From assembly GCA_044892525.1 (NCBI GenBank), contig CM097885.1, forward strand, positions 11,224,001 through 11,288,000: a stretch of DNA of 64,000 nt, in the 5' to 3' direction. The position numbers and the translations under genes are program-made. A model generated the notes under the pieces. The model was not told where the DNA came from. It made no database searches and saw only the letters and a program-made list of their open reading frames with translations. Numbering within the stretch: the first letter of the stretch is position 1; each line of letters starts with the position of its first letter. This stretch comes from Schmidtea polychroa. Taxonomy: Eukaryota. Of the stretch, positions 2,136 to 29,392 are shown one piece after another.

Positions 2136-3356
2136 TTATACCAACACAGTTCTATTTGCAGTAATTTGAACTTCATTTTCAAATACTCCATATATTATAA
2201 CATGTACTGGTTCAGTAACAGCTTTTGCAAACTTTATATCCAGTCGTAAATTTCCATTTTGAGGTAATTGACTTTGATTTAAATCAAAATCAGGGGCTAA
2301 AACAAATGTAAAAAATGGGTATTTGCTTTTAAAATCTTCTAGAGTTATTCCGCAATTCAAATTTTTATCTAAATAACCCAGATTTCTAACAATACTCTGC
2401 ATATATGTCGCGCAGTAATTGTCATTCTCGAAATCTTGAATATATGTTTCTCTATAATCAGTATTTTTCGACAAAGTCAATGATGTAACACCAAAGTTTT
2501 TGAAAATTGAGCTGGACGCAGTATATGATCCATTATATTGTGCTTCACTTTGAAATGTTATCAGAATAAAATTAGGCATTCTTCTGTCACCAAATATTTG
2601 TTCTTTATAGAAAAATGAAGCACCTTTAGCAATAGCAAATTGTACAATTTCCTTTGTTTTTAAGGGATAAACTGCATGTTTTGAATTAAGACCCAATTGA
2701 TGACTAGCTAATACAGAGGGGTCTACTCGAACTCTTCTCACCAATAATTTTGCATCAACTAATTGACATATTGGTGCAGTAGTTGCACTAGTAAGAGATA
2801 ATGCAGAATCAGACCTTTTCAATCTAATATGTACATTAACTCCCGGTAGTAAATATTTCGGTTGATCCATAAAATCAAGTTGTAATGATGAGCACATGGT
2901 GAAAACCTTTGAGCCTTTTACCCACTTTTTTCTTTCATCATCACTGCCATAACCCATAGGAGTAAGACATGTATTTTTAGTATCGGAATTGTAATTTAAA
3001 ATAGTTTCTATTAATGCCTTGTGAATGAATGTATTATTTCCGCCCTCAATCTTGATATTATTAAATCCCAACACTGCATCTTTAAAAAGAGTATGAAACA
3101 GGAAATTGTTCGGTATTACATCTGCATTGGCATCCAAAACTTTTCTATCTTTATCTACAACCTTAATCTGAACAGTCAATAAAGTATCGTTCAAATCTAA
3201 ATATTCGGTTTGTGAACCATTAATATAAAACTCGATATCATTTCTACTATCTGTAATTGAATTCATAGGAAAAACTTCCTCAAATGCCCCAAATTCTATT
3301 ACAGCCTGGGGCGACGGTCTATCAAATATACATAATTCAGATTTACCACAAATCAT
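2136..3356 (-). CDS. Polinton major capsid protein (double jelly-roll, hexon-like), intact ORF
   Basis: 406 aa with KSELCIF, YLDLNDTLL, QPKYLLPGVNVHIRLKR and GNLRLDIKF motifs typical of Polinton MCP; adjacent to the protease. Confidence 0.9.
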   Translation of the reverse strand: MICGKSELCIFDRPSPQAVIEFGAFEEVFPMNSITDSRNDIEFYINGSQTEYLDLNDTLLTVQIKVVDKDRKVLDANADVIPNNFLFHTLFKDAVLGFNNIKIEGGNNTFIHKALIETILNYNSDTKNTCLTPMGYGSDDERKKWVKGSKVFTMCSSLQLDFMDQPKYLLPGVNVHIRLKRSDSALSLTSATTAPICQLVDAKLLVRRVRVDPSVLASHQLGLNSKHAVYPLKTKEIVQFAIAKGASFFYKEQIFGDRRMPNFILITFQSEAQYNGSYTASSSIFKNFGVTSLTLSKNTDYRETYIQDFENDNYCATYMQSIVRNLGYLDKNLNCGITLEDFKSKYPFFTFVLAPDFDLNQSQLPQNGNLRLDIKFAKAVTEPVHVIIYGVFENEVQITANRTVLV

Positions 3357-3724
3357 TTTGCAAATATAGTTCCATGTCCTTTCATTCGTTTGTTTATACG
3401 TGATATTCCATGTCTTTTACGTTTTGGAGCATGAGCTGGAGCTGGAGCTGGAGCTGGTTTTTGAAACATACCTGCAACCCCGGGTAAAACTTTCCCTAAT
3501 TCTGCTAAAGCTTTTGTTTTTAGAAATGGTAATATTTTCTGTTCATTCATAATAACATCTTTTGCAGTTTTCATACCAAAACTACCGATACGTTTAAGAA
3601 TAGGCAATGCAAATCTACCTATTGTTCTCAACCATCCTGATCCGTACTGTTTACCAATAAAATATGGTAAATCACCACCAGATTGGCTACCACTATACAT
3701 ACTAATAATATCAGAATTAGCCAT
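3353..3724 (-). CDS. Basic virion core or membrane-active precursor protein
   Basis: 123 aa with QSGG, QYGSG and MKGHG glycine motifs, an amphipathic helix WLRTIGRFALPILKRIG and a basic tail. Lies between mCP and MCP with start/stop overlaps; conserved in copy 2. Confidence 0.7.
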   Translation of the reverse strand: MANSDIISMYSGSQSGGDLPYFIGKQYGSGWLRTIGRFALPILKRIGSFGMKTAKDVIMNEQKILPFLKTKALAELGKVLPGVAGMFQKPAPAPAPAHAPKRKRHGISRINKRMKGHGTIFAK

Positions 3725-4750
3725 TTATTTTACGAAAATGTAATGTCAAATGAGTTTTTGAACCTTTTGGAAATTCGATTAATTGACCAGAATCATCTCT
3801 TATATTTATTTCTATATTGTTTATACAAGATGTTGAAACAGGTAAATACATGGGATTTTCTACATTGATTTGTACAACTTCATCTTGATCATGTTTTTCA
3901 ATCCATATAGATTTCATTAAAGGAACACTAGAATCACCAACAATAACTGGTTCCACGATATTACTGTAAATGAACATTTGCTGATGATTTTCGGTTTGTT
4001 TGTTCCTTCACAAATTTGTTCATTTTGTGTACATACTGGTTTAGTCAATCCTAATGTTTTTGTCAAATTTGAGTCAAATTTAACTTGACTAAGATTAGAA
4101 TTTATACTAAATCTAAATACTTTATCTTTTTGAAGCTCAAAAACTGTTAAAATCTCGCTACAATTGTCACCTAAATAAGTTTGTAATTGTTCGAGGTCTG
4201 TAATATATAAATTATCTTTAAAAGTATATGCATGCTCTGTTATTTCAAAGTATGATAGCTTAAATTTGAATTCAACTAAATTATTAGTTTTCGGAAGTGT
4301 AGAGAGATTTATTTTGACTGTATCATTAAATACATTACGTAAATCGGTAAATCCAAGACGTTTAGCATCAGCCACTGTAGAAAATATAATTTCGAATGGC
4401 TTATTCAAGCAATTCATGTATAAATATTGACCATCATCATAAATTATAGGTTTCCTTGATTTCGATGAACTCGTCAAGTTATAATTATCTTTATCAATAA
4501 GAACACTAATATATTCCGTTACTGCTACTTTCTTATTATATTCAAAAACAGACTTGCTATAGATTGGGAATAAATTGTATACAAATGTAAAATCCAACAG
4601 AGCAACTTCCCAGTCATTATCCAAATAGATAGGGTTTTGGAGTTCGATGATGAATTTGCTTGCTTGATTTTCTGGATGAATTAATGGACAACTATTGCTC
4701 GGCAAAATAGTATAAAAATTCACTTTACTATGTCTTTTGCTGATATCCAT
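3717..4750 (-). pseudogene. Minor capsid protein (penton-like), frameshifted near 3988
   Basis: N-terminal FYTILPSNS...WEVAL and C-terminal IVGDSSVPL...NIEINIRDDSG...LTLHFRK motifs are split over two ORFs. Small deletion relative to the intact copy 2 gene. Confidence 0.85.
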
Positions 4751-5352
4751 GACGGGTTTTGATAACCATGCCATTTGACATAGTATTGTTTATCCTTACC
4801 GACCTTTTTAGTTTTCAATATTTTTTGAATTCTAAATACTTTTGGATGTGGAATGACTTGTAATTCCTGCTCATAAAATTTCCCCTGTACAATATTATTA
4901 TCATTGTCTTTGATGACATACATTACAGGATTCTGTTTAGTATTTATTTTTGAAATTACAAAGACTTCATCACTCCAATTTGTATCAAAATTTTTAATAA
5001 ATGGTGATGCACTAATTTTACTAATTCTAACATGATCACCGACTTTATATTTAGGTTTTGTAATTTTTACAGATTTCTTAGAAGTCAATGATGTTTTTGA
5101 TGTAATATCAACCGGTCTCAATCCATTCAGTCCTCGATGTGATGAATGATTATAACTTGTTATTATTTTCGGTAAAGCATTTACCCATTTTTTATTACCT
5201 TGATGCACGAACAATTTCTTTAATCGATCTCTCAATGTTCGATTAAATCTTTCAACATGGGCAGCTTTGTATTGAGAATGTACCGAGTAGTGATTTATTT
5301 TCAGTTTATCGAGGATTTGCTTAACTTTGCTATTGTAGAATTCTTTACCTAA

Positions 5353-5434
<82 letters not shown>

Positions 5435-5850
5435 TTAATAATAATAATAATAATAATAATACCTAAATCTGTTTGCAAGTTATTAGGATGTCCATCTTTA
5501 AATAAAATATTAATTGCCTTGGACATTTCTTCTGCAGATTTTGCCTTGACCGGTATTGCTCGTGCAAACCTGCTGTATACATTAATACATGTTAAAATAT
5601 ATTTATTCCCATTGTTAATTTTCGAATATGGTATCATCTCCATCAAATCCATTTGCCATAAATCGTCAATACCAAATGTTTTATACGCTCTTGTTGGAAA
5701 TCTTTTCCGCATTGGTTTGTTCAAACTGTACGCAAGCTGATCTGATAACCACTTCTGGGTTTCTTTTTTCGAATTCGGAACTCTTTTGTTTAATTTTGCC
5801 ACTCCACCGAAACCGGCTTCGTCTTCTGGGTTCGTCCAAATCTTCTCCAT
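4720..5850 (-). CDS. Polinton retroviral-like DDE integrase with C-terminal chromodomain; intron 5349-5462
   Basis: WQMDL (D), QTDLG|KEFYN (D, restored by splicing), VERFNRTL (E), and chromodomain FRIQKIL...YYVKWHGY...SWI. Confidence 0.92.
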
Positions 5851-6463: not shown

Positions 6464-7090
6464 TCAACTTTGTTTATAAACCATGGCACCTTTTGGGTTG
6501 AAAATATCTGTTTTTACACGTAAATCATCTGGACATTGTTTTGTGAAATCAAGAAATATATATCCATGAGGTATTTTTGTAGCATCTTGAAATGCACTGA
6601 TAAGAAAATTACGATTGTTAGGGTATGCTTGACGTGCAAGAAAATCAATCACTGTTGCATCTCTAGGATTCTTGAAAATAACTAAATACTGTACATTTAA
6701 ATTACGTGTTCGATGTGCCCCACCTTGATGAAATAGATTTTGTGTTATGAAAATAACTGTTACACCGACATGTCTGCTGATCTTTGTAAATAAATTATTA
6801 AAATCTTTTTCTTTATTAGCTTCTTGATACAAATCATCGATAATAATGACATCACCCTTCTTTAATCGGCTGGACCAGTTTTTATCAAATCCCTTTACTA
6901 TTTTCATGTTTTTTAATTTACAGAAACTTGATTGAGTTAATCCATGTTCTTCATCAGCACCCCTATGCCAATAAATCCTGTTGAATTTTGATTTGAATAA
7001 ATTTGATTTTAGTAATTTACAAACAAATAATGTTTTTCCACTACCACTCGGACCAACGATTTGGTATACTGCATCATTTCTTAATTCCAT
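6464..7090 (-). CDS. A32/FtsK-HerA family genome packaging ATPase
   Basis: Walker A GPSGSGKT, Walker B IIIDD, plus SRH and ITQN motifs. Confidence 0.92.
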   Translation of the reverse strand: MELRNDAVYQIVGPSGSGKTLFVCKLLKSNLFKSKFNRIYWHRGADEEHGLTQSSFCKLKNMKIVKGFDKNWSSRLKKGDVIIIDDLYQEANKEKDFNNLFTKISRHVGVTVIFITQNLFHQGGAHRTRNLNVQYLVIFKNPRDATVIDFLARQAYPNNRNFLISAFQDATKIPHGYIFLDFTKQCPDDLRVKTDIFNPKGAMVYKQS

Positions 7091-7189: not shown

Positions 7190-7627
7190 ATGTTAGCAAA
7201 TATAAATTATCGAGGAAATTTTGATGTATCGAATATGAGGTTCCCACCAGGGAAACCCCAGCAAATTATCGATAGAAGCGGGAAATATCCGATAATATTT
7301 TTCAAGACTGGTAAATGCAGAATCATGGGATGTAAGAAACCTTTGGATATTAATAAATTACAATATCGAATAAATAATATTAAAATCCAATCAATTACCG
7401 TTACTATGGATATGGGACATAGTATCAATCTTTATAACATGTCGAAAAAATGTGATTGTATGTTTGAACCGGAATTGTTTCCGGCACTAAGACTATTAAA
7501 ATATAACCCTATATGTGTCAACGTGTTTGCTAGTGGAAAGGTTGTCATGCTGGGGTTGAGAAATTTGGACTATAGAGAATTTGTTGACAATGTTCGAAAT
7601 GAGATAATTTCATTGGTCGATTTCTAA
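7190..7627 (+). CDS. Virus-encoded minimal TATA-box-binding protein (TBP)-like protein
   Basis: Two TBP repeats: LANIN...IIFFKTGKCRIMG and KIQSITVTMD...FEPELFPAL...VNVFASGKVVMLG (compare TBP YEPELFPGL...LIFVSGKVVLTG). Confidence 0.85.
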   Translation: MLANINYRGNFDVSNMRFPPGKPQQIIDRSGKYPIIFFKTGKCRIMGCKKPLDINKLQYRINNIKIQSITVTMDMGHSINLYNMSKKCDCMFEPELFPALRLLKYNPICVNVFASGKVVMLGLRNLDYREFVDNVRNEIISLVDF

Positions 7628-8063: not shown

Positions 8064-8564
8064 ATGAAAACTCTATTCATATTGCTAATTATTATAACGA
8101 GTGTGTGCTCACACAATACAACAATAACAGTGGAGTCTTTTAATAAATCAATATGTGTTTGTCCGAATACAGCCAAGTTGATGGATATTTTATATATTCT
8201 CGATAAACCAAAATGGTCAAAGCATCCAGGAAAAAGAATATCTCAAAGATTGGAGAATTTAGAAAACAGTTATGAACTAACATTTGAATATATACAAAAT
8301 ATAAAAATTAAATTGATTGATCATATTGAGGTTTTCAATAACTCTATTACTGAAAATAAAAAGAATATGAAGATTATTGATAAGAAGCATGATTATTTGT
8401 TAAAAAAGATTGAATTATTATTAAGAGAAATTCAAACAATCAAAGGATCAATAGAATATCTGAAAATCAATTCAACGTTACCAATTTCTAACAATATTGC
8501 TGCGAATAGTAGTACATCAATATTTAGTTTACCTTTGTTAATTTTACATTATTTTATTGTTTAA
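8064..8564 (+). CDS. Secreted or GPI-anchored coiled-coil glycoprotein (viral accessory)
   Basis: Signal peptide MKTLFILLIIITSVCS, several N-x-S/T sequons, heptad-like middle, and small residues (ANSSTS) before a terminal hydrophobic tail. AATAAA follows the stop. Confidence 0.7.
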   Translation: MKTLFILLIIITSVCSHNTTITVESFNKSICVCPNTAKLMDILYILDKPKWSKHPGKRISQRLENLENSYELTFEYIQNIKIKLIDHIEVFNNSITENKKNMKIIDKKHDYLLKKIELLLREIQTIKGSIEYLKINSTLPISNNIAANSSTSIFSLPLLILHYFIV

Positions 8565-8589
8565 ATAAATGTATGTTTTGTTGATTTCT

Positions 8590-9094
8590 TGAGCGTGACC
8601 AGTACCCTTGTGAGGACCTTGATGAGTCATATGCCCTTGAAAATGACCTTGATGAGTCACACTATGAGTCATGGTCTTTGTTTCAATGGCCTTGATGAGT
8701 CATAGTATGAGTCATATGACCCTGAAAAAAAATTTCAAGGTCATATGAGTCATACTATGAGTCATATGACATTGAAAATGACCTTGATGAGTCATGGACT
8801 TTGTTTAAGTGACCTTGAGAAATTTTTCGACCTTGATGAGTCATAGTATGAGTCATATGACCTTGAAAATGACCTTGATGAGTCATATGATGAGTCATGG
8901 TCTTTGTTTAAATGACCTTGAAAAATTTGATGAGTCATAATATGAGTCATAGTCTTTGTTTCAATGACCTTGATGAGTCATATGTCTTTGTTTAAATTTG
9001 ACCTTGAAAAAAAAATGTACTTTTAGACTTAGAATATTTTTGAAAATCTTACCGACGGGGGGGTACTGTGCTAGCGGTGCCCAATCTATCTACT
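8590..9094. repeat. Right terminal inverted repeat of Polinton copy 1, an array of TGAGTCA and TGACCTTG motifs
   Basis: About 15 TGAGTCA and about 9 TGACCTTG/CAAGGTCA motifs. Inverted homologue at 60988-61220. Confidence 0.85.
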
Positions 9095-11644
9095 AATAAT
9101 AAATATTGATTTATAGTATAAAAAGAAAATCAGATAAATGAAATTTATTTTAAAATCACTAAAAATATAAATTATATGGAAAATTAAATTATCTAGAACC
9201 GGGACTCGAATTGCTTTACTATATATAAAACAAAAATTTGTTTTGCAAAAAAAACATGACAACAATAACCCATACATTTTAATATTTAATATATCAACAA
9301 CCGAGTTAAAACAAGACAAGCTGTGATACAGGCGAGTCAACGATGGTGTATAAAATAATCAAATATGAATGTCATCTAACCAAGTTAAAAACATTAAAGT
9401 TCAGAACAATTCGAGGTAAACAGTTCACGGATGTAGAACTTTTGGATAGTTTAATTATTCAACTAATTAATTTAATTTGTTTTTACACTTAAACTGTTTA
9501 AATTGTTTGTTTGTAAAATTGTTAAATTTGAACTTCTACATTTTTGGTAAATTTTTTTAAAGGAAACAAGTTTTATTTTAATTTAATATATATTATACGT
9601 GTTGATATTTTTAAGGCATGGCGAATAATACAAATGTAAATGATAAGAATAAAGATTCACTGTGGAATTACTTTAACCGCACTAAAGATGGAAATGCAGG
9701 TATATGCACAATTCAAGGTTGCTCGTAAACCATAAAATCTTCAGGCGAAACGACTACTGGTTTACGTAGCTATCTTAGAACACAGCATAACATAAATTTA
9801 TTAAAAAGAGATCTAAATGGTGGAACCTCGAGCTCAAGCGAAATTAAAAATATCAACCGAAGTGAATTTTTCTTGTAAAATTACAAACTTTTTCACCAAA
9901 ACCATTGATGAATCTCTAACTGCAATAATATCTCGGATGACAAGCAAAGATGGCCTGATATTTAAAACATTTTGTACGTCATATAATTTGAGAGAGCTAT
10001 TAAAAAGTAAAGGTCATCAACAAATTCCTAAATCGTCCAATACAATTAGGAATATAGTTTTATCGTATTCCCAAAAAATACGTGATGAAATGATGAGTTA
10101 TCTTCATGAACTGTTCGCGCGAAAGATTTAGTTTGACGTTTGACGAGTGGACATTGGTTAAAAATCGCCGATATAAGTGTATTAATATTCACGCGAATAA
10201 CATATTTTGAAACCTTGGCTTAACACGAGTGAATATTATCAATGCCAGCAGAAAAGTACATAGAAATACTTGGAGAGAAATTGCGTGAATTTAATTTTTT
10301 AATTTATAATATTATTTCAATAACAACGGACGGTGCTTCCGTGATGACAAAAGTGGGAAAATTAGTAAATGTTGATCATCAGCTTTGCCTAGCACATGGC
10401 ATACACTTAGCTGTGGTAAAAGTCATTTATAAAAAACACCGTAAATGAAGAATTAAATAATTATGAGAATCCAGATAATGATGAAGATGATGAAAGTGAA
10501 GAAAATGACGGTTTTAATGTTATTAATGGTACGCTCATAGAAGTTTCAAATATAAAGTTGAACTCAAAAATATATTCGCTAGTTGAATAAATACGAAAGG
10601 TCGTAAAAATTTTTCGCAGATCACATACAAAAATTGATAGTGTTCTTCAAAAATATGTAAAGGCAGAATTTGGAAAAGTAATGGAATTGAAATTGGATTC
10701 GAAAACACGATGGAATAGTTTACTTGATATGCTCGAACGATTTCAGAAATTAAAAATAAGGTAAGAAAAAGTCTAATTGACCTTAACATAGATATTAGCT
10801 TCTCAGATGAACAATTTCACTTATTATCTAATATAATGTCAGTGCTGCTTCCTATTAAAGTCGCGGTGGTAACACTTTGTTGTCGAGACACAAATCTATT
10901 TAGTGCTGACATCACTTTAAAATTTATGCTGGATGGATTATTTCAACAAAACAGCTGTTTAAGTAATCAATTTAAATCAGAATTGATTTTACGTATCAAG
11001 GAACGCCCAACAACTTTTGCAGATGTTTTTCAATATTTAAATAATTCGCAAGGTTACTTTACATCAAACGAAAAAGATTACGATATATTCTATTAAACAA
11101 GTAAAAGTTCAATAACTAAAGCTATTGTAAAATTGGTGATGAGTCATTGTGACAAAAATGATGAAAACGTTGTTGAAAACACGGATGATATTATAGAAGA
11201 AGTTTTAGAGGCGTCACACACTCCTGTTCATGATGTTATATTATCAGTGAAAGAAAAACTTCACCGAACAATACAAGAAAAATCCAATTTAAATCTCGAA
11301 GGTCCACAAGGATCACAGTAAATAACGTTAGGAGATATAAATAAAATTATCAAAAGAGAAATGAAAATATGAAAGTTCGTGGTAAATACTTAGAATTGGC
11401 CTATAACTACCTTAGATCCGTGCAACCAATAAGTGTTAATTCAGAAAGGACGTTTTCGGTTGCAGGGATTTTCTGCACAAAAATACGATCACGATTATAT
11501 GATGAAGGCCTAAATGCGTTATGTTTTTAAGAGCGTTTTTTAATAAGTTAAATTAAATAAATAAAACTTTAATAAAAATTTGTATTGTTTGATTTTTATC
11601 GATATTTATCGATAATTACATTGTAGGATATTTTGCAATCACTA
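9095..11644 (+). mobile_element. Decayed hAT DNA transposon (transposase pseudogene ~9618-11550)
   Basis: BED finger (LWNYF...C...C...H), LTFDEWT, ITTDGASVM, CLAHGIHLAV, TRWNSLLDMLERF and SVNSERTFSVAG motifs with many stops and frameshifts. Candidate right end ...TTGCAATCACTA at 11644. Confidence 0.88.
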
Positions 11645-14577: not shown

Positions 14578-16569
14578 ATGCTGCTACCAAGCAATCATCA
14601 TTTTATACTATTATTATTATTATTATTATTATTTCGATCAACTTATGTTGATTGTTTTAATTTAAAAAAAAAGATATTTACTTTTGCACTAAGTGCATTC
14701 AATTAAAAATTTTATTTATTTAGTATTTTTGCACTAAGTGCATGATATTTATATTCAAATCAAAAAATGTTTATTCTGTGCAATAAGTGCATTATAGAAA
14801 AATTTAATTTGAAAAAATAAATGCAAAAAAAATAATAATTAAATGATTCCATAGACTTAGATTAATATTGAATATATTGAAAAAAATCCTTCAATTAAAT
14901 AACCTGTGCAATTTTCTACTGAGAGTGATGCAGAACATGTCACATATATAAAAAGTCAGAATTATTAATTAAAAAGAAAAAGAATTAAATAAATAATAGA
15001 CAAGCATATTAACAACATATTAATAATCCTCCACCTTTTTTTATTTGTGTCTTTTGAACTGTTTTCACATGTAATCTTACAGTTATCGATTAATGTTTGA
15101 ATTGAATATGTTTTGGAATTTATCAATTACTAATTGAATTATTAGGAATACTTATTGAAAAACACTTCTACGGATTAACTGTTTTAGATCAATAACAAAC
15201 AAAAATACATTAAAGATGCTGGATAACGGGATAATTCCAAAAATAGTAACAATTAAAATCTGCACTTTCAAAAACAGACATTCTATTGACAGAACAGAGT
15301 GTATTGACATTCGAAATAGAGTGTCAACAGGGATTGTTAATTTTATATTATATAATTTGTAATTGTGATAATCAAATATATTTTATTGAACCAGTGTTTG
15401 TGTTCTTATTTATATAGGAACCATCAAGTTGAGATTTGAGAACCTCAACATAAGATTTTCAGCTATAACGATATAGCTAATAATTATGAAGGTAATAAAC
15501 TAAAACCTGAGTACAGAAGTTGAGTGATAATATTTATTTTACACAAAGATTTGCATCTAGAGGCATGTATATTAGCTTTTTCTAAAACTGATTTCATAAG
15601 TATTTTTGTCAATTATTACTTTTCCGATAAATATCTGACTATAGATTAAAACTTTGTTGAATTGATGAAAGATTAAGATATTGTACCTTTGAATGCCTTG
15701 ACTAAGTTTCCATATCTCCATCAAGTTATTACAACCGTTGGAGACTTAATAAAAGCCTTTTAGTGCATAATTTCGTTCTCTTGGAAGCATTTGATTATGT
15801 CATATTGATCAATTCATTTTTTTAATATTTTTTATTAAAAATATTTATTTTATTTTTATTTTTTTACTATATTTTTTTAATTATTTATAATATATTTTTA
15901 TTGTTTATAAATATTTTAATTATTATTTATACAATTATTCTAATTTTTATATTTTATTTGCTGAAACGGCCACCAGATTAAATTACGCTAAATATCTGGC
16001 TTGCGATCAAATGCGTGTTGCTTTGATGGATGATAAAGTTATTGAACCTAGAAGATTTAATAAAAGCATTCCAGTTTAATTTTTTCGTTCCCTTGACACC
16101 ATTTAACCATCTGGCTCTGCTAACCTTTTCCCATTATCATGTGGCGATTATGAGAAGCAGTTATCATACATCCAACTGTTTTATACATCGACCTTATTGC
16201 ACCTAGAAAGGTCATTTGAACAGTAAATCCATTTAAATATTTTGAATTAATTCTCTAGCATCCGGTTTTATAAGGCAATAAATTGCACGAATCATAAATT
16301 TATTATTTCTTTTGTTTATTATTCAGATATTTTCAAAAAATAACTTTTTTCAAAATGCCTTATTTAAAATTGGCAACAATAAAATTATTCAAAACAAAAA
16401 TATTTAAAATCTCTCGACATTTATAAAAATTTTGACAATTAAATTAAACTATTTCACGCTTTGGCATTTTTATCCCTAATTAATTAATTTTATAATAAAT
16501 CAAATTTATTATTTCAATGATACAATAAATATATTATTCTAATTGGCAATTTTAGATAGAGAAATGTAA

Positions 16570-16619
<50 letters not shown>

Positions 16620-17234
16620 TCTTTATTACCTTTTGTATTAATTGTCATCAGCATTTTTATAATTTTATATTTATTGTTTTTCAATTTATTATCATTCCGA
16701 GTTTTTATTAATTTATTATTTTTATTGTGATGTTTTTGTAATTATTATTTTTAGTTTCAATTATATTTTGTGGCTTGCCTACCAGCGAAAAAGAATAGAA
16801 ATGGCTCACAAATCCTTACAAAGCAAGCAAATTTCTCAATAATTCCAACTAACATGAAATGCATGCTTCTAATTAATAAAAATCAAATATAAATGAAAAA
16901 ATGATTAATTTAGCAACTGAAAATCATTGGAATATAGCACACTGATAGAGCTACCAATTTGTCCAATGAAATTAAATGGCCTTGAAAACAACTAATGAAA
17001 AACGAGTTCGCTTTATTGACAGGCGAATTAGCGTTTAGATTGACCACCAATCTTGCTGTGGTCTTGTGGAACTGATTAAACATTCATGTCGAATATAAAT
17101 GCAAATGAATATTAACTATTAAGAATTCAGATAATAATTTATAACATGTATATTTAATAAATATAATTAATTCACAAACTAAGCTTATCTCGAATTTAAA
17201 CAAATTAATATTAGTTTTTAAATTTAAATAATTA

Positions 17235-17739
17235 AAAAGAACTCACTAATTGAATGGCTAACATCAATACTGTTTTTAACGAGATTTGCCTATAACAATG
17301 AATAAACAAATCTTCCAAAGACGGACCCAGTAATTCTAAAACTAACGCATTGTATCGATCGCATTGTCCAAAGTAAAAATCTTCTGGAAAGCCTGTTATC
17401 GGATTACCTAAACTGTTAAAAATATTAATCACAACCATAATATAATAAATGAAATAGTTGAGCATTCTATAAAATCTGTATTCTAAATGTAATTAGGGTG
17501 CTCTGGTTTTCATGAATTCTGACTTTAGAGCAACATGTTCGTTTGTATATCAATTCCTCCCGGAAACATTATGAAAATAAAAAACATTTGTAATTGATAA
17601 TATTACCTAATCGAAGTTCATCAAAATTTCCACAAAACTATCAAAAAATTCGAATCTCCACCGCTCAGAACATTAGAAGATTTCGAATAACGATTTTAAT
17701 CTGCTAAGCACTATATTTGAATATTTTATTAAAACTAAC
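17235..17739 (-). pseudogene. CSNK1G: Casein kinase I gamma (gilgamesh-like) 5' pseudogene fragment with introns
   Basis: [22 protein letters not shown] and [17 protein letters not shown]...[11 protein letters not shown] motifs. In-frame stop and deletions; no downstream exons seen. Confidence 0.85.
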
Positions 17740-18039
17740 CTGAAAAAATAGTGAATTTAAACAAACAGCTTAATAAAAAATGCTGACTTATAATAATTAA
17801 AAATTTATTAAAATTGTTTATATCCCATGAAAATTTTAATATATGTTCAAAGTTTTGAAATTTAATTCGTATTTTTTATTGGACAATAAAAGTAGTTTAA
17901 TTTATATTTAATTTTTGTGTATGTAAAATTGGTTTTCAACTATTTAAAGATAAAAGATTTAAAAACACTTAGTGTTTGGTAAAAACTGTAGAAATTAAAA
18001 TATTTTTGAATACGATAGTAATGCATTTTCAGAAACCAG

Positions 18040-18989
18040 CATGACAATCACATTGATAAATTAAATAAATACAAAACCCATTGGCAGTAAACGGGAAACG
18101 TTGACATATTTTTCATTAAGATTTTTAAGCTGTTGAAACTATTCGAAAACAGACTGGTGAGCGTTGGAATTTATGCACGCAACCCTGCTGTAAAGGCATA
18201 TGTTTCTGATAAGAATTGTCGGGAAATAATTGCCTTTGCCTAAAAGCACATTGGCTGGACTACACAGCAATGGTCTGATGAACCAAAGTTCAACCTTTTT
18301 GTTTCCGATGGTCGATGTAAAGTTTGGCGCCCCAAACGAGAAAAGGACAATCCTCTATATTCCAGGGTAAGAATACCTCATTGATGGAGATTTTAACAGG
18401 ACAACGATCCGAAGCATTCCTCAAAGTCCTACAAGAGTGGTTCGTGAAGAAAAGGTCAATGTTCTGAAATGGCTGTCACAATCTTTGGACCTTAATCCAA
18501 TTCGAACATCTTTGGGATGAGATTGGATGAGACGCCTTGAAGGTCAACATTTCTCGAACTCGAATCAGTTGTATGAGAAACTTTAGGAAATTTGGTCTGA
18601 GATTCTTGTTAGCATATGTGAGCGCCTTGTGAACTCGAACCCACGCTGTTGTCAGGCAGTCTTGGATGCTGGTGGATACCCTACAAAATATTAATCATTA
18701 TCTATGTGTAAACTCTTTCACTCAGTATTTATTCTGTATTTATTCAGTACAAAAGAAAATAAAAAAGTGTTTCCATATTGATTTGATTCAAAATTGAGAA
18801 TTTTTTTCAAACAAATTACGATAAGAGTGTTAAAATTCCCTCTCATTGTTTCACTGATTGTACCTTCAGAAAGCCCACCTAAATTTTACCAAGAAGCACT
18901 AACGGGAAAATTCATGGCATTTACAGAATAAAATGATGAAAGATGAAACAAATTTCTATCTCATATTTCTATACTTTTTCTGCTCACTG
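18040..18989 (+). mobile_element. Tc1/mariner (Tc1-like DDE) remnant
   Basis: WSDEPKFNLFVSDGR, QDNDPKH, SQSLDLNPI..HLW and GGYPTKY* fragments. Right TIR ...CTGCTCACTG followed by TA. Confidence 0.88.
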
Positions 18990-19229
18990 TATATATGATA
19001 AATATAGAAATTATGAAGGTAATAAAGAAAAAGCTTAATGCGGAAGTTGAAGGATAATATTTATTTTACACAAAGATCTGCATATAGTGACATGTAGCTA
19101 TCTTATTAATTCATCTCAATCAACTACGAAAAACGCTTGTGATCATAGTAATAATGATCGAAGTAGAGTTATGTTGCTAGATAGTGATATAAGTATTGTT
19201 AGTCAACCTCCTTTTACGATTGTTAGCTT

Positions 19230-19472
19230 GAACGACATAACTCTTGTCCAACCAACTCATTTGCAAACTAACCTCAAAGAAACTATTGATTCTTAGTGAA
19301 GAAAGAATTAAGCAATTGGATATTAAAATCAGAGTTCACAGTGGTGGAAAGAACTCACAAATTTATGCAATCAGTCAAGCATTGGTAAAATCTGTTGTTG
19401 CATCCTAGCAAAAATTTGTTGATGAACAATCTAAAAGAGAGTTGAAAGAAAGCTTCATTCGATATGATGGAA
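19230..19472 (+). pseudogene. RPS16: 40S ribosomal protein S16 (uS9) pseudogene fragment
   Basis: LDIKIRVHSGGKNSQIYAISQALVKSVVAS*QKFVDEQSKRELK...YD matches RPS16; contains a stop and a frameshift. Confidence 0.88.
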
Positions 19473-20448
19473 GTGAAATTCCTTGGATATCTAATTATGA
19501 TAACAGCGGTATTTTTGATCAAAGTTTTGGCAGTTGAGATGGCCGTGAAGTCAAAACACACCCATAGCTCTATTTGGATCATCGCAGGTGAAGTGACACG
19601 ATTAGGGTGAGATATCGTCGCGAGATTAATGGAACTTTATCTATCGCAAGAAAATGAGTGCGAAAATTCCGGATAGTGTCGATTTATTGTCCACAATATA
19701 GATAATTGAATGGATAGAATGACTTACACCTAAATCCGAATTATAAAAGTCTCTACACCAAACACCACTGAGATTCATTCTCTATAGTGGTGGTTGGCGT
19801 GTAGAGCAATTGCTCACTCACCAATTTAATGAATTTCCTATCATATTTTGGAAATTTATTTTTGCCATTTTACAAATGGTTTTCAGGTAAGATGTTAAAT
19901 TTTAAGACTTGAATTTTGATCCATATAGATATGAGAGTTCTTAAATACTACTTTTAATCAACAGTATAAGTATAAAATATTTTTAATTAATTTTCAAGGT
20001 TTTTTAGGAATTTTATGATATTTATCTTTAAGTATTTTAGAATTATTTCGAAAAAATGTGAGTGAGATATATTTTTAATTATAATTAAATAAATCAATCA
20101 CCAAAAATATGTATTTTTCTAAATAATTTTTGTTTTTTTTCTGAGCTCAATATGAGATGCTTCTTTCAGGAAACCATCTGGATTGAAAAGACATTGAACC
20201 AGATTCATCTGCTCTTGATAATTTGATTAAAAATATATTTTTAAAAAGTTTCAGCGATCTTTTTTCTTTCTAAAAATTGTCAAAAATCAAGTTATAATAG
20301 AAACTTATCTCAGCGGTGCATTTCTACGAATCAAATGTTTATGTGTTTTTAGTGTGTGTTACGCTTGTGTGTAGTTTTTAATTTTTCTTCCAGTTTTCAG
20401 ATTTCTATAGTATAAAATGTATCTTACTGCACTATAAATGAGAACATC

Positions 20449-22302
20449 AGTAGGTAGTTAGTAAAATTGTTGCAACTTTTGATTACGCAATTGTTGCAAC
20501 TCAAATTTTTTGCGTTCAGGGATTTTTAGTCCAAAATTTTTTTTATCACACTATAGTGAGGGGGTCTCGATTGATCCTGAGATTTTCAATACAAAAAAAT
20601 TTTTTCAATAGAAATTTGAATTATCATTAAAAAGCCAAGGATTTTTCGAATTAAATTAAGGTGGGTCTCCTTGGTCATGAGAATTTCAATAGAAAAAGGT
20701 GGTCTACAATAAAAAAGCCAAGGATTATTCAGACTGTAGTGAGAGGGTCTCCATGGTCCTAGAATTTACAATCGAAAAAGACGGTCTTCAATAAAAAAGC
20801 ATGGTAATTTAAGGTCTCAGGATATTTTCAATACAAAAAGGTGGTCTACACTAAAAAACAGTGGTAATTTAAGGTCTCAGGATATTTTCAATACAAAAAT
20901 CCGATTATCACTAAAATAGCATGGATTTTTCTAGGTCAATTCAGGTGGGTCTTCTTGGTCCTGAGAATTTCAATAGAAAAAGGTGGTCTACACTATAAAA
21001 CTTGGTAAATTTTTTAAAATAAAGCAAATTATGGGTCTAAAAAATTGATTTACAGTAAATTATGGTCCAAATTTTTAAATTAAAGTAAATAATAGGTCTA
21101 ATAATTGAATTAAAGCAAACAATAGGCTGAAATAAGTAAATTAAGGTCCAAATTTTTGAATTACATTAAATAATAGGTCTAATAATTGAATTAAAGTAAA
21201 TAATGGTTCAAAATTTAAAATTAAAGTTAATTAAGGGTTCAACTAAGTAAATTAAGGTTCAAATTTTAAATTAAAGTAAATCAAGGTCCAAATTTTTAGA
21301 ATTAAAGTAATCAATGGGTTCAAATTTTTATATTAAAGTAAATAATGGTTCAAAATTTAAAATTAAAGTTAATTAAGGGTTCAACTAAGTAAATTAAAGT
21401 CCAAATTTTTAAATTAAAGTAAATAATGGTTCAAATTTTTAATTAAAGTAAATCAAGGTCCAAAATTTTAAATTAAAGTAATGAATTGGCTCAAATAACT
21501 AAATTAAGGTTCTAAAAAATTAAATTAAAGTTAATTAAGGTCCAAATTTTAAAATTAAGTAATCAATGGTAAAAAAATTTTAAATTAAAGTTAAATAAGT
21601 AAATTAAAGTAATAATTTTTAAATAAGTAAATTAAAGTTATGTAATAAGTAAATTAAAGTAATATTTTTAAATTTATTAACAAAAAGTTGAAATAATAGA
21701 AGATGTTTGAGAATTGAAATTTTTTAATGAAAATTTTTTATGAATAATTTTTTAAGTTAATTTTTAATGGAAATTTTTATGAAATATTTTTTAATGATAA
21801 TTTTAGATGGAAATTTTTATGAAATATTTTTCAAAGACAAATTTTAATAATAATTCAACAACAAACCAACAACTTAGTACCAACAACCAGTAACTTACGA
21901 ACATGTATTAACAACCACATACCTACAACTAGTTACTAACAATCAGTTACCTGATACCAAGTACTAACAACCAACTAGCTACCACCTACCAAGTACATAC
22001 AACCAACAACAACCAAGTACTAAGCATTATTAACTAACTACTAAGTACTTACAACCAAAAACAACCAGCTTACAACTAGCTACCACCTACCAAGTACTCA
22101 CAACCATTAACTTACGAACATGTATTAACAACCAAATACCTACAACTAGTTACTAACAACCAGTTACCTGATACCAAGTACCAACAACCACCTACCAAGT
22201 ACTAACAACCAAAAACAACCAGGTACTAAGCATTATCGACCAACTAAATACTAAGTACTAACAACCAAAAACAAGAAAAAACTAGGTACCAGATACCAAC
22301 TA
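20449..22302 (+). repeat. Left arm: AGTAG terminus, then ~60-bp GGTCT repeat, AAATTAAAGT-type repeat and CAACCAAGTACTAA-type repeat blocks
   Basis: Three distinct tandem-repeat blocks, truncated at 22302 where they join the protease intron. Confidence 0.8.
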
Positions 22303-22347
22303 AAAAACAACTTACTCCATGACAACTTTTTGTGTTTCTGTATACAT

Positions 22348-23563
22348 TTATACCAACACTGTTCTATTTGCAGTAATTTGAACTTCATTTTCAAATACTC
22401 CGTATATTATAACATGTACTGGTTCAGTAATAACTTTTGCAAACTTTATATCCAGTCGTAAATTTCCATTTTGAGGTAATTGACTTTGATTTAAATCAAA
22501 ATCAGGGGCTAAAACAAATGTAAAAAATGGGTATTTGCTTTTAAAATCTTCTAGAGTTATTCCGCAATTCAAAATTTTATCTAAATAACCCAGATTTCTA
22601 ACAATACTCTGCATATATGTCGCACAGTAATTGTCATTCTCGAAATCTTGAATATATGTTTCTCTATAATCAGTATTTTTCGACAAAGTCAATGATGTAA
22701 CACCAAAGTTTTTGAAAATTGAGCTGGACGCAGTATATGATCCATTATATTGTGCTTCACTTTGAAATGTTATCAGAATAAAATTAGGCATTCTTCTGTC
22801 ACCAAATATTTGTTCTTTATAGAATGATGAAGCACCTTTAGCAATAGCAAATTGTACAATTTCCTTTGTTTTTAATGGATAAATTGCATGTTTTGAATTA
22901 AGACCCAATTGATGACCTGCTAATACTGAGGGGTCTAGTCGTACTCTTCTCACCAATAATTTTGCATCAACTAATTGACATATTGGTGTAGTAGTTCCAC
23001 TAGTAAGAGATAATGCAGAATCAGACCTTTTCAGTCTAATATGTACATTAACTCCCGGTAGTAAATATTTCGGTTGATCCATAAAATCGAGTTGTAATGA
23101 TGAGCACATGGTGAAAACCTTTGAGCCTTTTACCCACTTTTTTCTTTCATCATCACTACCATAACCCATAGGTGTAAGACATGTATTTTTAGTATCAGAA
23201 TTGTAATTTAAAATAGTTTCTATTAATGCCTTGTGAATGAATGTATTATTTCCGCCGTCAATCTTGATATTATTAAATCCCAACACTGCATCTTTAAAAA
23301 GAGTATGAAACAGGAAATTGTTCGGTATTACATCTGCATTGGCATCCAAAACTTTTCTATCTTTATCTACAACCTTAATCTGAACAGTCAATAAAGTATC
23401 GTTCAAATCTAAATATTTGCGAACCATTAATATAAAACTCGATATCATTTCTACTATCGGTAATTGAATTCATAGGAAAAACTTCCTCAAATGCCCCAAA
23501 TTTTATTACAGCCTAGGGCGACGGTCTATCAAATATACATAATTCAGATTTACCACAAATTAT
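22348..23563 (-). pseudogene. Major capsid protein, copy 2 (start codon lost, frameshift near 23418)
   Basis: Highly similar to 2136-3356. ATG changed to ATA and a 5-nt deletion upstream of YLDLND. Confidence 0.88.
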
Positions 23564-23928
23564 TTTGCAAATATAGTTCCATGTCCTTTCATTCGTTTGT
23601 TTATACGTGATATTCCATGTCTTTTACGTTTTGGAGCTGGAGCTGGAGCTGGAGATTTTTCTTTTTGAAACATACCTGCAACCCCGGGTAAAACTTTCCC
23701 TAATTCAGCTAAAGCATTTGTTTTTAGAGATGGTAATATTTTCTGTTCATTCATAATAACGTCTTTTGCAGTTTTCATACCAAAACTACCAATACGTTTA
23801 AGAATAGGCAATGCAAATCTACCAATTGTTCTCAACCATCCCGATCCGTACTGTTTACCAATAAAATATGGTAATTCACCGCCAGATTGGCTACCACTAT
23901 ACATACTAATAATATCAGAATTAGCCAT
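23560..23928 (-). CDS. Basic core or membrane-active precursor protein, copy 2
   Basis: Near-identical to 3353-3724. Confidence 0.7.
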   Translation of the reverse strand: MANSDIISMYSGSQSGGELPYFIGKQYGSGWLRTIGRFALPILKRIGSFGMKTAKDVIMNEQKILPSLKTNALAELGKVLPGVAGMFQKEKSPAPAPAPKRKRHGISRINKRMKGHGTIFAK

Positions 23929-24964
23929 TTATTTTACGAAAATGTAATGTCAAATGAGTTTTTGAACCTTTTGGAAAGTTTATAAGTTTTCCACTATCAT
24001 CACGAATATTTATTTCTATATTGTTTATACATGAACTTGCTATTGATAAATACATGGGATTATCGATATTTATATTGACAACTTCATCATGTTCATATTT
24101 TCCAATCCATACCGATTTCAAAAGAGGAACACTGGAATCACCAACAATTATGGGTTCGATAATGTTAGTATATATGAACATTTGTTGATGATGTTCTAGT
24201 ATTCTTGGTTTGCGTATACCAGTCGAGTTTTCTCGATATTTTTGCTTATCTAATCCAAGTGAATTTGCCAAATTTTTATCAAATGTAACTTCGCAAATAT
24301 CCTCATTTAAACTGAAGGTAAAAATCAAATCTTTCACAATTTCCAAATTTTTAAATATGTGTGAACAATTGAACTTTAAATATTTAAGTAAATCATCAAG
24401 TTTATCAAAATATAATTCATCAGCAAAGGTAAATGATTCTTCAACTTCATCATTATACGACACAGATATTTTGATTTCTTCTTTCACTATACTGTTTGCT
24501 TCAAATAGATTAAAACGTAATAAATACTCGGTCTCCGTAACAATATTTTTCAACTTATTGCAACCCATTCGTTTGGCATCTTCAATAGTTTCGAATGTTA
24601 TTGTAAATGGTTTAAAATCACAACTGATATTTATTCCATCCTTGTAAAACATATAGCAATGCGAATCTAATATTTGATTCGGAATATGATATGTTTTATC
24701 ATAATTACTGATAACAAAGATACCGCTACATGTTTTCACAATATTCCTTTTGAAATCAATCTTACATTGACTATAAAATGGGAATGTGTTGTACACGAAT
24801 GTAAAATCTTGCAGTGCAACTTCCCAGTCACCATTTAAAGAAATCGGATTCTGGAGATTGACCATAAATTTACTGGCTTGATTGTCTGGATGAATTAATG
24901 GGCAACTATTGCTCGGTAAAATAGTATAAAAATTCACTTTACTAGGTCTTTTGCTGATATCCAT
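23921..24964 (-). CDS. Minor capsid protein (penton-like), intact, with divergent central domain
   Basis: Continuous ORF with FYTILPSNS...WEVAL and IVGDS...RDDSG...LHFRK motifs. Start placed at MDISK. Confidence 0.88.
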   Translation of the reverse strand: MDISKRPSKVNFYTILPSNSCPLIHPDNQASKFMVNLQNPISLNGDWEVALQDFTFVYNTFPFYSQCKIDFKRNIVKTCSGIFVISNYDKTYHIPNQILDSHCYMFYKDGINISCDFKPFTITFETIEDAKRMGCNKLKNIVTETEYLLRFNLFEANSIVKEEIKISVSYNDEVEESFTFADELYFDKLDDLLKYLKFNCSHIFKNLEIVKDLIFTFSLNEDICEVTFDKNLANSLGLDKQKYRENSTGIRKPRILEHHQQMFIYTNIIEPIIVGDSSVPLLKSVWIGKYEHDEVVNINIDNPMYLSIASSCINNIEINIRDDSGKLINFPKGSKTHLTLHFRKING

Positions 24965-25802
24965 GACGGGTTTTGATAACCATACCATTTTACATAGTAT
25001 TGTTTATCCTTACCGACCTTTTTAGTTTTCAATATTTTTTGAATTCTAAATACTTTTGGGGGAGGAATGACTTGTAATTCCTGCTCATAAAATTTCCCTT
25101 GTACAATATTATTATCATTGTCTTTGATGACATACATTACAGGATTCTGTTTAGTATTTATTTTTGAAATTACAAAGACTTCATCACTCCAATTTGTATC
25201 AAAATTTTTAATAAATGGTGATGCACTAATTTTACTAATTCTAACATGGTCACCGACTTTATATTTAGGTTTTGCAATTTTTACAGATTTCTTAGAAGTC
25301 AATGATGTTTTTGATGTAATATCAACCGGTCTCAATCCATTCAGTCCTCGATGTGATGAATGATTATAACTTGTTATTATTTTCGGTAAAGCATTTACCC
25401 ATTTTTTATTACCTTGATGCACGAACAATTTCTTTAATCTATCTCTCAATGTACGATTAAATCTTTCAACATGGGCAGCTTTGTATTGAGAATGTACCGA
25501 GTAGTGATTTATTTTGCAAACCTGCTGTATACATTAATACATGTTAAAATATATTTATTCCCATTGTTAATTTTCGAATAAGGTATCATCTCCATCAAAT
25601 CCATTTGCCATAAATCGTCAATACCAAATGTTTTATACGCTCTTGTTGGAAATCTTTTCCGCATTGGTTTGTTCAAACTGTACGCAAGCTGATCTGATAA
25701 CCACTTCTGGGTTTCTTTTTTCGAATTCGGAACTCTTTTCTTTAATTTTGCCACTCCACCGAAACCGGCATCGTCTTCTGGGTTCGTCCAAATCTTCTCC
25801 AT
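24934..25802 (-). pseudogene. Integrase, copy 2, with a ~262-nt deletion removing the intron and second catalytic Asp
   Basis: Junction at ~25515 joins copy-1 positions 5301 and 5564. Confidence 0.88.
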
Positions 25803-25860
25803 TACAACAAGAAGATTTAAAATTAAATTTAATGTCGGGCAATGAAGGATTAGCACCCAT
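25633..25860 (-). CDS. Small predicted N-myristoylated overlapping ORF, copy 2
   Basis: MGANPS...SSCC...RRR, same length as in copy 1. Confidence 0.5.
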   Translation of the reverse strand: MGANPSLPDIKFNFKSSCCNGEDLDEPRRRCRFRWSGKIKEKSSEFEKRNPEVVIRSACVQFEQTNAEKISNKSV

Positions 25861-25863
25861 TGT

Positions 25864-26388
25864 TTATGATTGATTTCCTACAACTCCACCTAATAATGAT
25901 AATGCCAGAGGTATCAATGCTCCAATAAATCCACCTTGTTGTTTATATATAATTTTCCTCATTTGCTTACGATTTTTATTATTTACTAAAGATAACAATG
26001 GTTTCCTATGTTTGCTCAATAAATGCTTTTTTGATTTAGTGATTTTAATTTTGCCTTTGACTACTTTAAGTATAATATTGAGTAAATCATCGACAACAAA
26101 ATTTGGGAATGATTGCAATATATTCAATCTTTTCATACTCGGGGCTTTTAACAATGCATTAAAAAATGGAAAACTGCGATGATTTTTAACTACTTTTTTA
26201 CTGGTTTTACGGGTTTTACGTTTAGGTTTAGGATTTTTCGAAATAAGATTCATTGCAGAGAAATTTTCAGTTACAAGTTTTTTAGATAGTGTATAACTAG
26301 TTGTTGGTGGAACTTTTGGAACTTTAATACTCTTTCTAATACTTTTTCTTAATTTCCTAATATTTTTCACCCTTGCTTTTAGAAACAT
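25864..26388 (-). CDS. Lys/Arg-rich core protein precursor, copy 2
   Basis: Near-identical to 5912-6445 with a 3-codon in-frame deletion. Confidence 0.7.
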   Translation of the reverse strand: MFLKARVKNIRKLRKSIRKSIKVPKVPPTTSYTLSKKLVTENFSAMNLISKNPKPKRKTRKTSKKVVKNHRSFPFFNALLKAPSMKRLNILQSFPNFVVDDLLNIILKVVKGKIKITKSKKHLLSKHRKPLLSLVNNKNRKQMRKIIYKQQGGFIGALIPLALSLLGGVVGNQS

Positions 26389-26406
26389 TATTATTCATAG
26401 AGGTTT

Positions 26407-27033
26407 TCAACTTTGTTTATAAACCATGGCACCTTTTGGGTTGAAAATATCTGTTTTTACTCGTAAATCATCGGGACATTGTTGCGTGAAATCAAGAAAT
26501 ATATATCCATGAGGTATTTTTGTAGCATCTTGAAATGCACTGATAAGAAAATTACGATTGTTAGGGTATGCTTGACGTGCAAGAAAATCAATCACTGTTG
26601 CATCTTTAGGATTCTCTAAAATAACTAAATATTGTACATTTAAATTATGTGTTCGATGTGCCCCACCTTGATGAAATAGATTTTGTGTTATGAAAATAAC
26701 TGTTACACCGACATGTCTGCTGATCTTTGTAAATAAATTATTAAAATCTTTTTCTTTATTAGCTTCTTGATACAAATCATCGATAATAATGACATCACCT
26801 TTCTTTAATCGCCTGGACCAGTTTTTATCGAATCCCTTTACTATTTTCATGTTTTTTAATTTACAGAAACTTGATTGAGTTAATCCATGTTCTTCATCAG
26901 CACCCCTATGCCAATAAATCCTGTTGAATTTTGATTTGAATAAATTTGATTTTAATAATTTACAAACAAATAATGTTTTTCCACTACCGCTCGGACCAAC
27001 GATTTGGTATACTGCATCATTTCTTAATTCCAT
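26407..27033 (-). CDS. Packaging ATPase, copy 2
   Basis: GPSGSGKT, IIIDD and ITQN motifs. Start at MELRN by comparison with copy 1. Confidence 0.9.
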   Translation of the reverse strand: MELRNDAVYQIVGPSGSGKTLFVCKLLKSNLFKSKFNRIYWHRGADEEHGLTQSSFCKLKNMKIVKGFDKNWSRRLKKGDVIIIDDLYQEANKEKDFNNLFTKISRHVGVTVIFITQNLFHQGGAHRTHNLNVQYLVILENPKDATVIDFLARQAYPNNRNFLISAFQDATKIPHGYIFLDFTQQCPDDLRVKTDIFNPKGAMVYKQS

Positions 27034-27136
27034 TTCAAAAATTTTATAAATATATGTGTATTTATTTATATTCGATGATTTAATGAACTCGTGCTCAATT
27101 TGTATATAAAGACTAATTTTCATAAATGATTTAATA

Positions 27137-27574
27137 ATGTTAGCAAATATAAATTATCGAGGAAATTTTGATGTATCGAATATGAGGTTCCCACCAGGGA
27201 AACCCCAACAAATTATCGATAGAAGAGGGAAATATTCGATAATATTTTTCAAGACTGGTAAATGCAAAATCATGGGATGTAAGAAACCTTTGGATATTAA
27301 TAAATTACAATATCGAATAAATAATATTATAATCCAATCAATTACCGTTACTATGGATATGGGACATAGTATCAATCTTTATAACATGTCGAAAAAATGT
27401 GATTGTATGTTTGAACCGGAATTGTTTCCGGCACTAAGACTATTAAAATATAACCCTATATGTGTCAACGTGTTTGCTAGTGGAAAGGTTGTCATGTTGG
27501 GGTTGAGAAATTTGGAGTATAGAGAATTTGTTGACAATGTTCGAAATGAGATAATTTCATTGGTCGATTTCTAA
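27137..27574 (+). CDS. TBP-like protein, copy 2
   Basis: Intact 145 aa with five substitutions versus copy 1. Confidence 0.85.
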   Translation: MLANINYRGNFDVSNMRFPPGKPQQIIDRRGKYSIIFFKTGKCKIMGCKKPLDINKLQYRINNIIIQSITVTMDMGHSINLYNMSKKCDCMFEPELFPALRLLKYNPICVNVFASGKVVMLGLRNLEYREFVDNVRNEIISLVDF

Positions 27575-27648
27575 TTGGTTAATTTTTAATTGGTTATTGT
27601 TTGATTTAAACAAACGGTTTTTTGTTTAGGATTCATTTATTCAACAAC

Positions 27649-28065: not shown

Positions 28066-28270
28066 ATGTATTTTTGTTTTTATTGTGATTTTATATTTGA
28101 AATAATAATATATAATAATAGTAATAATAATAATAATATAAATAGAAATAGTAATAATAGAAATAATAATAATAGAAATAGAAATAATATAAATAGTAAT
28201 AATAAAACATTAATAATAAAACATTAATAATAATAATATTTCACATTAATAGAACATAAATGCAGCAATA

Positions 28271-28873: not shown

Positions 28874-28922
28874 CAAAGAAAATCTATAAACAAACTTATA
28901 ATATAGTTTTAAAGTGATAAAA

Positions 28923-29322: not shown

Positions 29323-29392
29323 TAAATTTTAGTTAATTAGTGTTTGTAAATTTATTTAAAATTTTATTTAAAAATCAAACAAAATAACTATA

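Follow-up and report, generated by a model that had tools for sequence, protein, structure and literature searches.

Control repeats that vary in copy number and drive viral genes are familiar from retroviral LTRs and from the enhancer repeats of polyomaviruses, and the gathering of host-factor sites in repeats by viruses is a known principle, which limits the surprise of meeting a further case. The hrs of baculoviruses are arrays of CRE/TRE repeats that act as enhancers as well as origins, with an activity that correlates with motif count (cited portions of PMC13513840). Adenovirus ITRs carry sites for NFI, NFIII/Oct-1, Sp1 and ATF (cited portions of PMC5717082), and the terminal repeats of KSHV act as an enhancer (cited portions of PMC12700447). 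For Polintons, short repeated end motifs of the type (AGT)2 or (AG)3 are described in the portions cited from PMC8097293, the (AGT)2 motif at Maverick ends in vertebrates, and terminal repeats are reported there and in the portions cited from bioRxiv 10.1101/2023.08.22.554363 and PMC8502044 to measure 46-1,447 bp. What these portions of the three papers describe is confined to 6-bp end motifs, with no inner array of host-factor sites, and the Polinton literature consulted, which takes in PMC6431247 and bioRxiv 2025.12.11.693146 and outside of which lie subscription papers and Repbase entries, holds no description of such a terminal array. An array of this kind is a concrete handle on what sets off expression and replication of an integrated Polinton: its three types of motif can be named, its module number differs naturally from copy to copy, and mutants are ready to hand.

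The 64-kb stretch of an AT-rich animal genome analysed here (64,000 nucleotides, hereafter the window) contains such an array. It occupies 394 bp of the forward strand (8614-9007), consists of three motif types joined by short linkers, and lies subterminally in a Polinton/Maverick, 88 bp inside the element end at 9094. The array is a real and well-structured feature, and the conservation of its motif cores over its linkers suggests that the element has borrowed an on-switch of the kind that baculoviruses and adenoviruses have. To the reading in which host factors act on it as an enhancer for the element's own benefit, in the manner of baculovirus hrs or adenovirus ITR sites, we give a probability of roughly 0.55.

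The array and the element that carries it

An adenovirus-type maturation protease (1721-2191; Pfam PF00770, E=4.8e-6, above cut-off), a double-jelly-roll major capsid protein of 406 aa (2136-3356) and an A32-type packaging ATPase (6464-7090; PF04665, E=3.6e-7, above cut-off) are all encoded on the reverse strand of the element. The capsid protein was recognised by fold search alone: sequence searches of its alignment against Pfam and PDB gave nothing useful, and its predicted model (pLDDT 85) retrieved the capsids of iridovirus, PBCV-1 and mavirus in Foldseek with E values of 1e-16 to 1e-14. On the same strand, an rve integrase with a chromodomain (4720-5850) matches intact-looking ORFs of relatives at 46-77% identity; its Pfam scores (rve E=1.2e-5, Chromo E=3e-4) stay under the curated cut-offs because of an AAT microsatellite insert at 5353-5461. 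Two further reverse-strand ORFs (3353-4774) have no Pfam match and keep the order seen in relatives; from gene position, one is labelled a basic core-like protein and the other a minor-capsid-position ORF. The forward strand encodes a small TBP-like protein (7190-7627; PF00352, E=1.8e-15), of which a second gene copy lies at 27137-27574, and the accessory ORF closest to the array (8064-8564), which has GATTGGT and a TATA-like box ahead of it and whose region recurs as a 95% identical copy at 29771-30534. Neither a family B polymerase nor a partner end of this Polinton was found within the window.

The element end at 9094 is confirmed by a drop of contig depth in public DNA-type runs. Past 9105 the summed depth falls about 100-fold in run X1 (582,659 to 5,727) and 64-fold in run X5, where contig depth stands for neither copy number nor expression; by the same measure the family is plainly abundant. 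Both ends visible in the window (9094 and 60988) begin AGTAGAT and so agree with (AGT)2 at five of six bases. The terminal segment at 9094 (9008-9094, reverse strand) contains an A-run and a G-run (9057-9063) and reads inward 5'-AGTAGATAG; this array-bearing end is likely a terminal inverted repeat. On the other side of the array, the inner flank (8590-8613, forward strand) lies in a stretch, 8589-8614, that matches 30556-30581 at 92%, after which the second Polinton copy diverges. The preliminary description of this locus had called the terminal repeat at 8590-9094 a dense motif array, with the motifs in about 420 bp; the array itself holds up, and the two flanks, 8590-8613 and 9008-9094, have to be separated from the array proper.

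Motif cores make up 275 of the 394 bases (about 70% of the span). There are 15 AP-1 boxes (TGAGTCA, which we take to be the bZIP site) between 8622 and 8980, all of one common polarity and all exact matches to ATGAGTCA, 14 as ATGAGTCAT and one as ATGAGTCAC. Boxes of the NR5A/ERR type (TGACCTTGA; NR boxes below) also number 15, nine exact and six with one mismatch, one of the 15 being inverted; the exact 9-mer TGACCTTG occurs nine times, eight times on the forward strand and once on the reverse strand at about 8735-8736. The third module, CTTTGTT, presumably a Sox/TCF-type (HMG-box) site, occurs five times (8676, 8799, 8902, 8954 and 8986) and had been overlooked in the preliminary description, whose two motif types and counts of 15 AP-1 and nine exact NR words were reproduced on recounting. 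The modules follow one another in the order NANNAASNAANN'AANNASNNAANNAASNAASNASN, in units of 30-85 bp with tandem periods of 30, 32 and 52. NR and AP-1 words were also said to be often fused, and this is borne out by four exact fusions TGACCTTGATGAGTCA (8644, 8779, 8870 and 8965) and by seven direct abutments when one mismatch is permitted.

All three words exceed the maxima of 2000 shuffles of 8590-9094: AP-1 was found 15 times (mean 0.16, maximum 3), the NR5A-type word 11 times (mean 0.03, maximum 2) and CTTTGTT/AACAAAG five times (mean 0.14, maximum 3). Shuffling ignores tandem amplification, so that this enrichment, a comparison already proposed in the preliminary description, proves a repeat and not a function. 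Outside the two arrays, the remaining 63,280 bases of the window hold only three AP-1 words and three exact NR 9-mers.

The single inverted NR box, placed between paired AP-1 boxes, is the source of an imperfect 68-bp palindrome (8696-8763). Its hairpin is retained in the centroid structure, and the stretch as a whole folds with z=-9.1 against 100 shuffles; such a strong single-strand fold is expected from palindromic motifs and was set aside as evidence. On the forward strand the central base is identical in each of the 15 pseudo-palindromic AP-1 boxes, even within the inverted-looking arm of the palindrome. The six distinct AP-1 spacings (12, 30, 31, 38, 40 and 49) lie close to multiples of 10 bp, with p about 0.01 in a helical-phasing test that is post hoc and uses spacings stemming from few units.

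Variation of cores and linkers

Tandem anatomy can arise without any function. On this account, which we consider unlikely, a neutral minisatellite would have grown by slippage from a single ancestral unit, about 32 bp long, in which the words were present by chance. The tandem periods fit it well, as do the joints inside the array in public contigs, which skip 51, 54 or 83 bases or return by 88 or 104. Moreover, the probability that one random 32-bp unit contains three members of a panel of 100-200 seven-mers is 0.007-0.045, and a genome has many repeat families. An intronic repeat at 36231-36407 that is unrelated to the array by BLAST, also contains the NR word, which counts against the enhancer reading.

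Neutral amplification predicts that cores and linkers decay equally. Across both arrays, cores deviate at 7 of 376 bases (1.9%) and linkers of equal length at 13 of 107 (12.1%; Fisher p=3e-5, for counts that are not independent, the units being related by descent). The preliminary description had proposed to set cores against spacers, and by this measure cores are about six times less variable, an outcome in favour of that description, which had named equally free mutation of cores and spacers as refuting. Cores were parsed with at most one mismatch, the column majority served as the linker baseline, and a linker class entered the count if it had at least three members of equal length. A conservative count, with one decayed NR box included among the cores (11 of 385) and only distinct linker changes (11 of 107), still gives p=0.003. 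The core changes are spread unevenly over the motif types, with 1 in 133 bases for AP-1, 0 in 63 for Sox/TCF and 6 in 180 for NR; NR boxes are thus less strict than the other two (6 of 15 mismatched), which speaks against the enhancer reading.

Anchoring the comparison on the eight Sox/TCF boxes with full flanks leaves their neighbours free of pre-selection. In all eight cases the AP-1 core upstream of the anchor matches exactly, as does the NR box downstream of it in seven, and the linkers around the anchors differ in letters and in length. Likewise, six AP-1 pairs keep a constant 12-bp spacing across a 5-bp linker whose middle position shows all four bases. Among 40 of 200 substitution rows from public runs, three of the four changes in the array fall in linkers and the fourth at 8828, where the base that is standard for the core makes up 99% of the X1 depth. 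Among 12 of 19 indel rows, the well-supported indels lie in a linker and the A-run; the same rows include four core deletions, each of a single base and essentially from one X18 contig, and these count against the enhancer reading.

The array varies in size and order among copies. In X1, the depth of 8620-8781 is only about a quarter of that on either side, which indicates that the inner part of the array is uncommon in the family and counts against the enhancer reading, and loose contig ends at 8587 and 8614 continue like the second Polinton copy. What is reshuffled is whole words, and the two arrays of the window differ in module order and in linkers, which together with the unequal decay argues against a neutral minisatellite. 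The arrays are also of uneven size at the two ends (35 and 12 modules), a point against the enhancer reading. Run X18, from organism B, has contigs at 8863-8943 whose loose ends look array-like and combine NR words and AP-1-like words with different linkers (agreement 0.54-0.70); this hints weakly that a related species may have the array as well. The public sequencing runs listed with matching sequence include no RNA run.

The second end, relatives and possible readers

A second terminal segment opens at 60988 (60988-61083, forward strand; 5'-AGTAGATGG), with a G/C-run and a Sox/TCF-type box at 61028, and leads into the short array (61084-61217, reverse strand) of four AP-1 boxes (one mismatched), five exact NR boxes and three Sox/TCF boxes. 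The stretch 61077-61150 matches 9014-8942 at 93%, and a perfect 22-bp inverted repeat (61018-61039 and 61263-61284) encloses the short array. The preliminary description had read this copy, at 61080-61220, as a mirror of the first; the copy is real, and it belongs to a different insertion rather than being the partner repeat. The ends point outward from each other, CTACT closing at 9094 and AGTAG opening at 60988, and no 6-bp duplication common to their flanks was found, both of which indicate two separate insertions. The end sequence stands on the ATPase side at 9094 and on the protease side at 60988, with capsid genes in the same orientation in the two insertions, an arrangement from which it seems that an intact element may carry the array at both of its ends.

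No complete Polinton lies within the window, and the insertion at 60988 is rearranged: a piece of promoter is inverted there, and the polymerase tail has an unexpected orientation. At 62093-62651 a polymerase-like C-terminal fragment adjoins a copy of the promoter region 29687-29970 that is inverted and 99% identical, a junction that is a recent rearrangement; the 92-residue fragment itself (62093-62368) matches, at 43-61%, long ORFs that three relatives have. The second Polinton copy (22302-30534) shows no array beyond its last gene, which counts against the enhancer reading. The internal promoter region of an ORF in the second copy (28293-28347, forward strand) contains Sox/TCF-type, CCAAT, AP-1 and TATA-like boxes in this order, so that two of the three array words recur there, as a single case that is not significant alone.

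A metagenome scan returned 31 loci with related capsids (41-70% identity), which share the gene order as far as each extends. Three of these relatives have an ORF of 1,089-1,298 aa in the polymerase position with a Pfam match to Endonuclease_7 and none to a polymerase family. The TBP-like gene is present in three of the 31 (L029, L030 and L050), most loci ending short of that region. The motif cluster was found in none of the 31, a point against the enhancer reading, although none visibly extends to an element end. Their non-coding DNA (19,209 bp) contains four AP-1 words against 1.85 expected, a count that 12 of 100 shuffles also reached, no NR5A-type word against 0.29 expected, and 12 Sox/TCF words against 4.9 expected (0 of 100 shuffles as high), the last excess being inflated by T-rich low-complexity DNA and by related contigs. 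In the coding DNA of loci L029-L059 the AP-1 word is depleted (2 observed against 13.8 in shuffles), for which the avoidance of stop codons accounts only in part and in which the loci are not independent. The contig of L035 stops in a G-run on the polymerase side (7473-7482) with no motif array inward; if this G-run is terminal, L035 is a relative without an array at its polymerase-side end. In scans of viral contigs, the fused 16-mer gave 28 loci with one match each and no cluster, paired AP-1 boxes gave 29 loci with at most five AP-1 words per 500 bp and an NR word in one of the 29, the 20-base end pattern gave no match, and the ATPase and capsid queries found no relatives.

Even if under selection, the words could have readers other than host factors. 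The left end of adenovirus has redundant packaging A-repeats nearby, and the array could similarly be a packaging or replication signal read by proteins of the element, such as the packaging ATPase, a terminal-protein polymerase, the integrase or a small accessory protein. Its redundancy and its position 88-480 bp inside the end are what such a signal would show, a short array has been kept at the end of the rearranged, polymerase-deleted insertion at 60988, and core conservation fits equally well. We nonetheless hold this account to be rather improbable: all three words coincide with known consensus sites of host factors, which proteins of the element need not bind, and the TBP-like domain is the only sequence-specific DNA-binding domain that Pfam detected among the element ORFs scanned.

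It could also be host genes that profit, the array having been co-opted as an enhancer of its neighbours and conserved for the benefit of the host. A family so abundant in the host runs could seed many such modules. The immediate flank, however, is a broken transposase-like remnant (9620-11320, just outside the Polinton end, which we take to be hAT-like), and the only host gene found, a member of the Nup205 family at 33.6-48.7 kb with PDB matches only to human and one vertebrate NUP205, starts about 24 kb from the array. Conservation among units and among copies is, moreover, the expectation for selection on the element rather than on one locus, and we regard co-option as very improbable; the suggestion of the preliminary description that the array could rewire neighbouring host genes finds no support in the window.

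The host sequence around these insertions is itself repetitive. Two near-identical duplications (14739-22302 and 49500-57070, 99.7% over 7.6 kb; 39689-43791 and 45394-49497, 99.5% over 4.1 kb and spanning the 3' part of the Nup205-family gene) represent either recent duplication or an assembly artefact. AT-rich, gene-less tandem-repeat arms (20764-22304, 31159-33051 and 55532-58520) occur in both orientations with 70-88% identity. The intronic repeat at 36231-36407 lies within the Nup205-family gene region, has a unit of about 38 bp and carries three exact and three one-mismatch copies of TCAAGGTCA on one strand, some of which have an AGGTCA direct-repeat context; the AP-1 word is absent from it.

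As to the factors themselves, the main NR word could plausibly be a flatworm NR5A site. In the portion of PMC8673669 cited here (S4 Table), FTZ-F1 of S. mansoni bound, by EMSA, three of three probes with an exact TCAAGGTCA among the 37 listed, in contexts other than that of the array, in agreement with the earlier assignment of this word to the NR5A type. In the same table neither of two CCAAGGCCA probes was bound, and the proposal that the NR variants at 8687 and 8828 are tolerated changes was dropped for this reason. A planarian chromatin study cautions, in its cited portion, that the presence of a motif by itself is no sign of regulation (PMC10558129).

A possible borrowed switch among known viral control repeats

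The reading preferred here, an enhancer that works for the element, can be put as a sequence of steps. Slippage and template switching would expand, contract and reshuffle the modules, and selection on the element would preserve the three short words, with host factors as their readers. Candidate readers are a bZIP dimer of the AP-1 type, a nuclear receptor that binds as a monomer (NR5A/FTZ-F1 or ERR), and a Sox or TCF protein with an HMG box. The resulting multimeric enhancer would then most likely open the chromatin of the element and drive its genes in particular cell states, possibly with a secondary aid to replication from the nearby end.

The preliminary description had interpreted the array as an enhancer responsive to stress or wounding and to nuclear receptors, or as a helper of a replication origin, and this finds partial support, in the subterminal position within a Polinton and in the core conservation. 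A putative wound response of the array is read from two things, the AP-1 word and the planarian nature of the host, which is inferred in part from composition. In the planarian S. mediterranea, jun-1 and fos-1 are wound-induced (cited portions of PMC5515462) and the silencing of Polintons is reported to be lifted in the course of normal differentiation (cited portions of PMC8532177). A rapidly evolving combinatorial switch of AP-1, NR5A/ERR and Sox/TCF words might let signals of injury or of differentiation wake the element in a host that regenerates and is probably of planarian type, might, given the great abundance of the family, have scattered injury-responsive enhancers in large numbers over the genome, and might be a general and so far overlooked trait of Polinton terminal repeats; taken as a whole, we find this extension improbable.

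Compared with described systems, the element shares with Polinton/Mavericks of the adintovirus type a protease, a capsid of double-jelly-roll fold, an rve integrase and an A32 ATPase. Within adenovirus ends, NFI and Oct-1 sites lie closer to the terminus than 88 bp, so that the first module of the array, 88 bp in, is farther from the end than these. The Polinton end, AGTAG, is close to (AGT)2 and differs at the sixth base, and the length of the repeat falls within 46-1,447 bp, the range in the cited portions of the Polinton papers. The repeats of KSHV, as far as the cited portion goes, and those of retroviral LTRs and polyomaviruses are alike in being variable-copy enhancer repeats, and the viruses and motifs are unrelated, which makes this an analogy only. 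Adenovirus, a virus relative that is linear, protein-primed and of the double-jelly-roll kind, likewise has host-factor sites just within its end; its ITRs, however, measure about 140 bp and have one or a few sites at fixed places (cited portions of PMC5717082), whereas the Polinton array has 35 shuffled modules for other factors. Baculovirus hrs share with the array an AT-rich span (390-880 bp), imperfect palindromes, clustered bZIP sites and a variable number of units, which for hrs differs between strains (cited portions of PMC13513840). According to the same portions, they are dispersed in a circular genome, have at their base a 30-bp EcoRI palindrome to which the viral IE1 binds, and are mostly of the CRE type, whereas the Polinton array is terminal, has TRE words only, and adds nuclear-receptor and HMG-box words. 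Strict membership among the hrs is ruled out, as units of about 70 bp with a 30-bp EcoRI-core palindrome are absent and the units here measure 30-85 bp. The array nevertheless has one trait of hr-like elements, namely clustered motifs that are conserved above their spacers.
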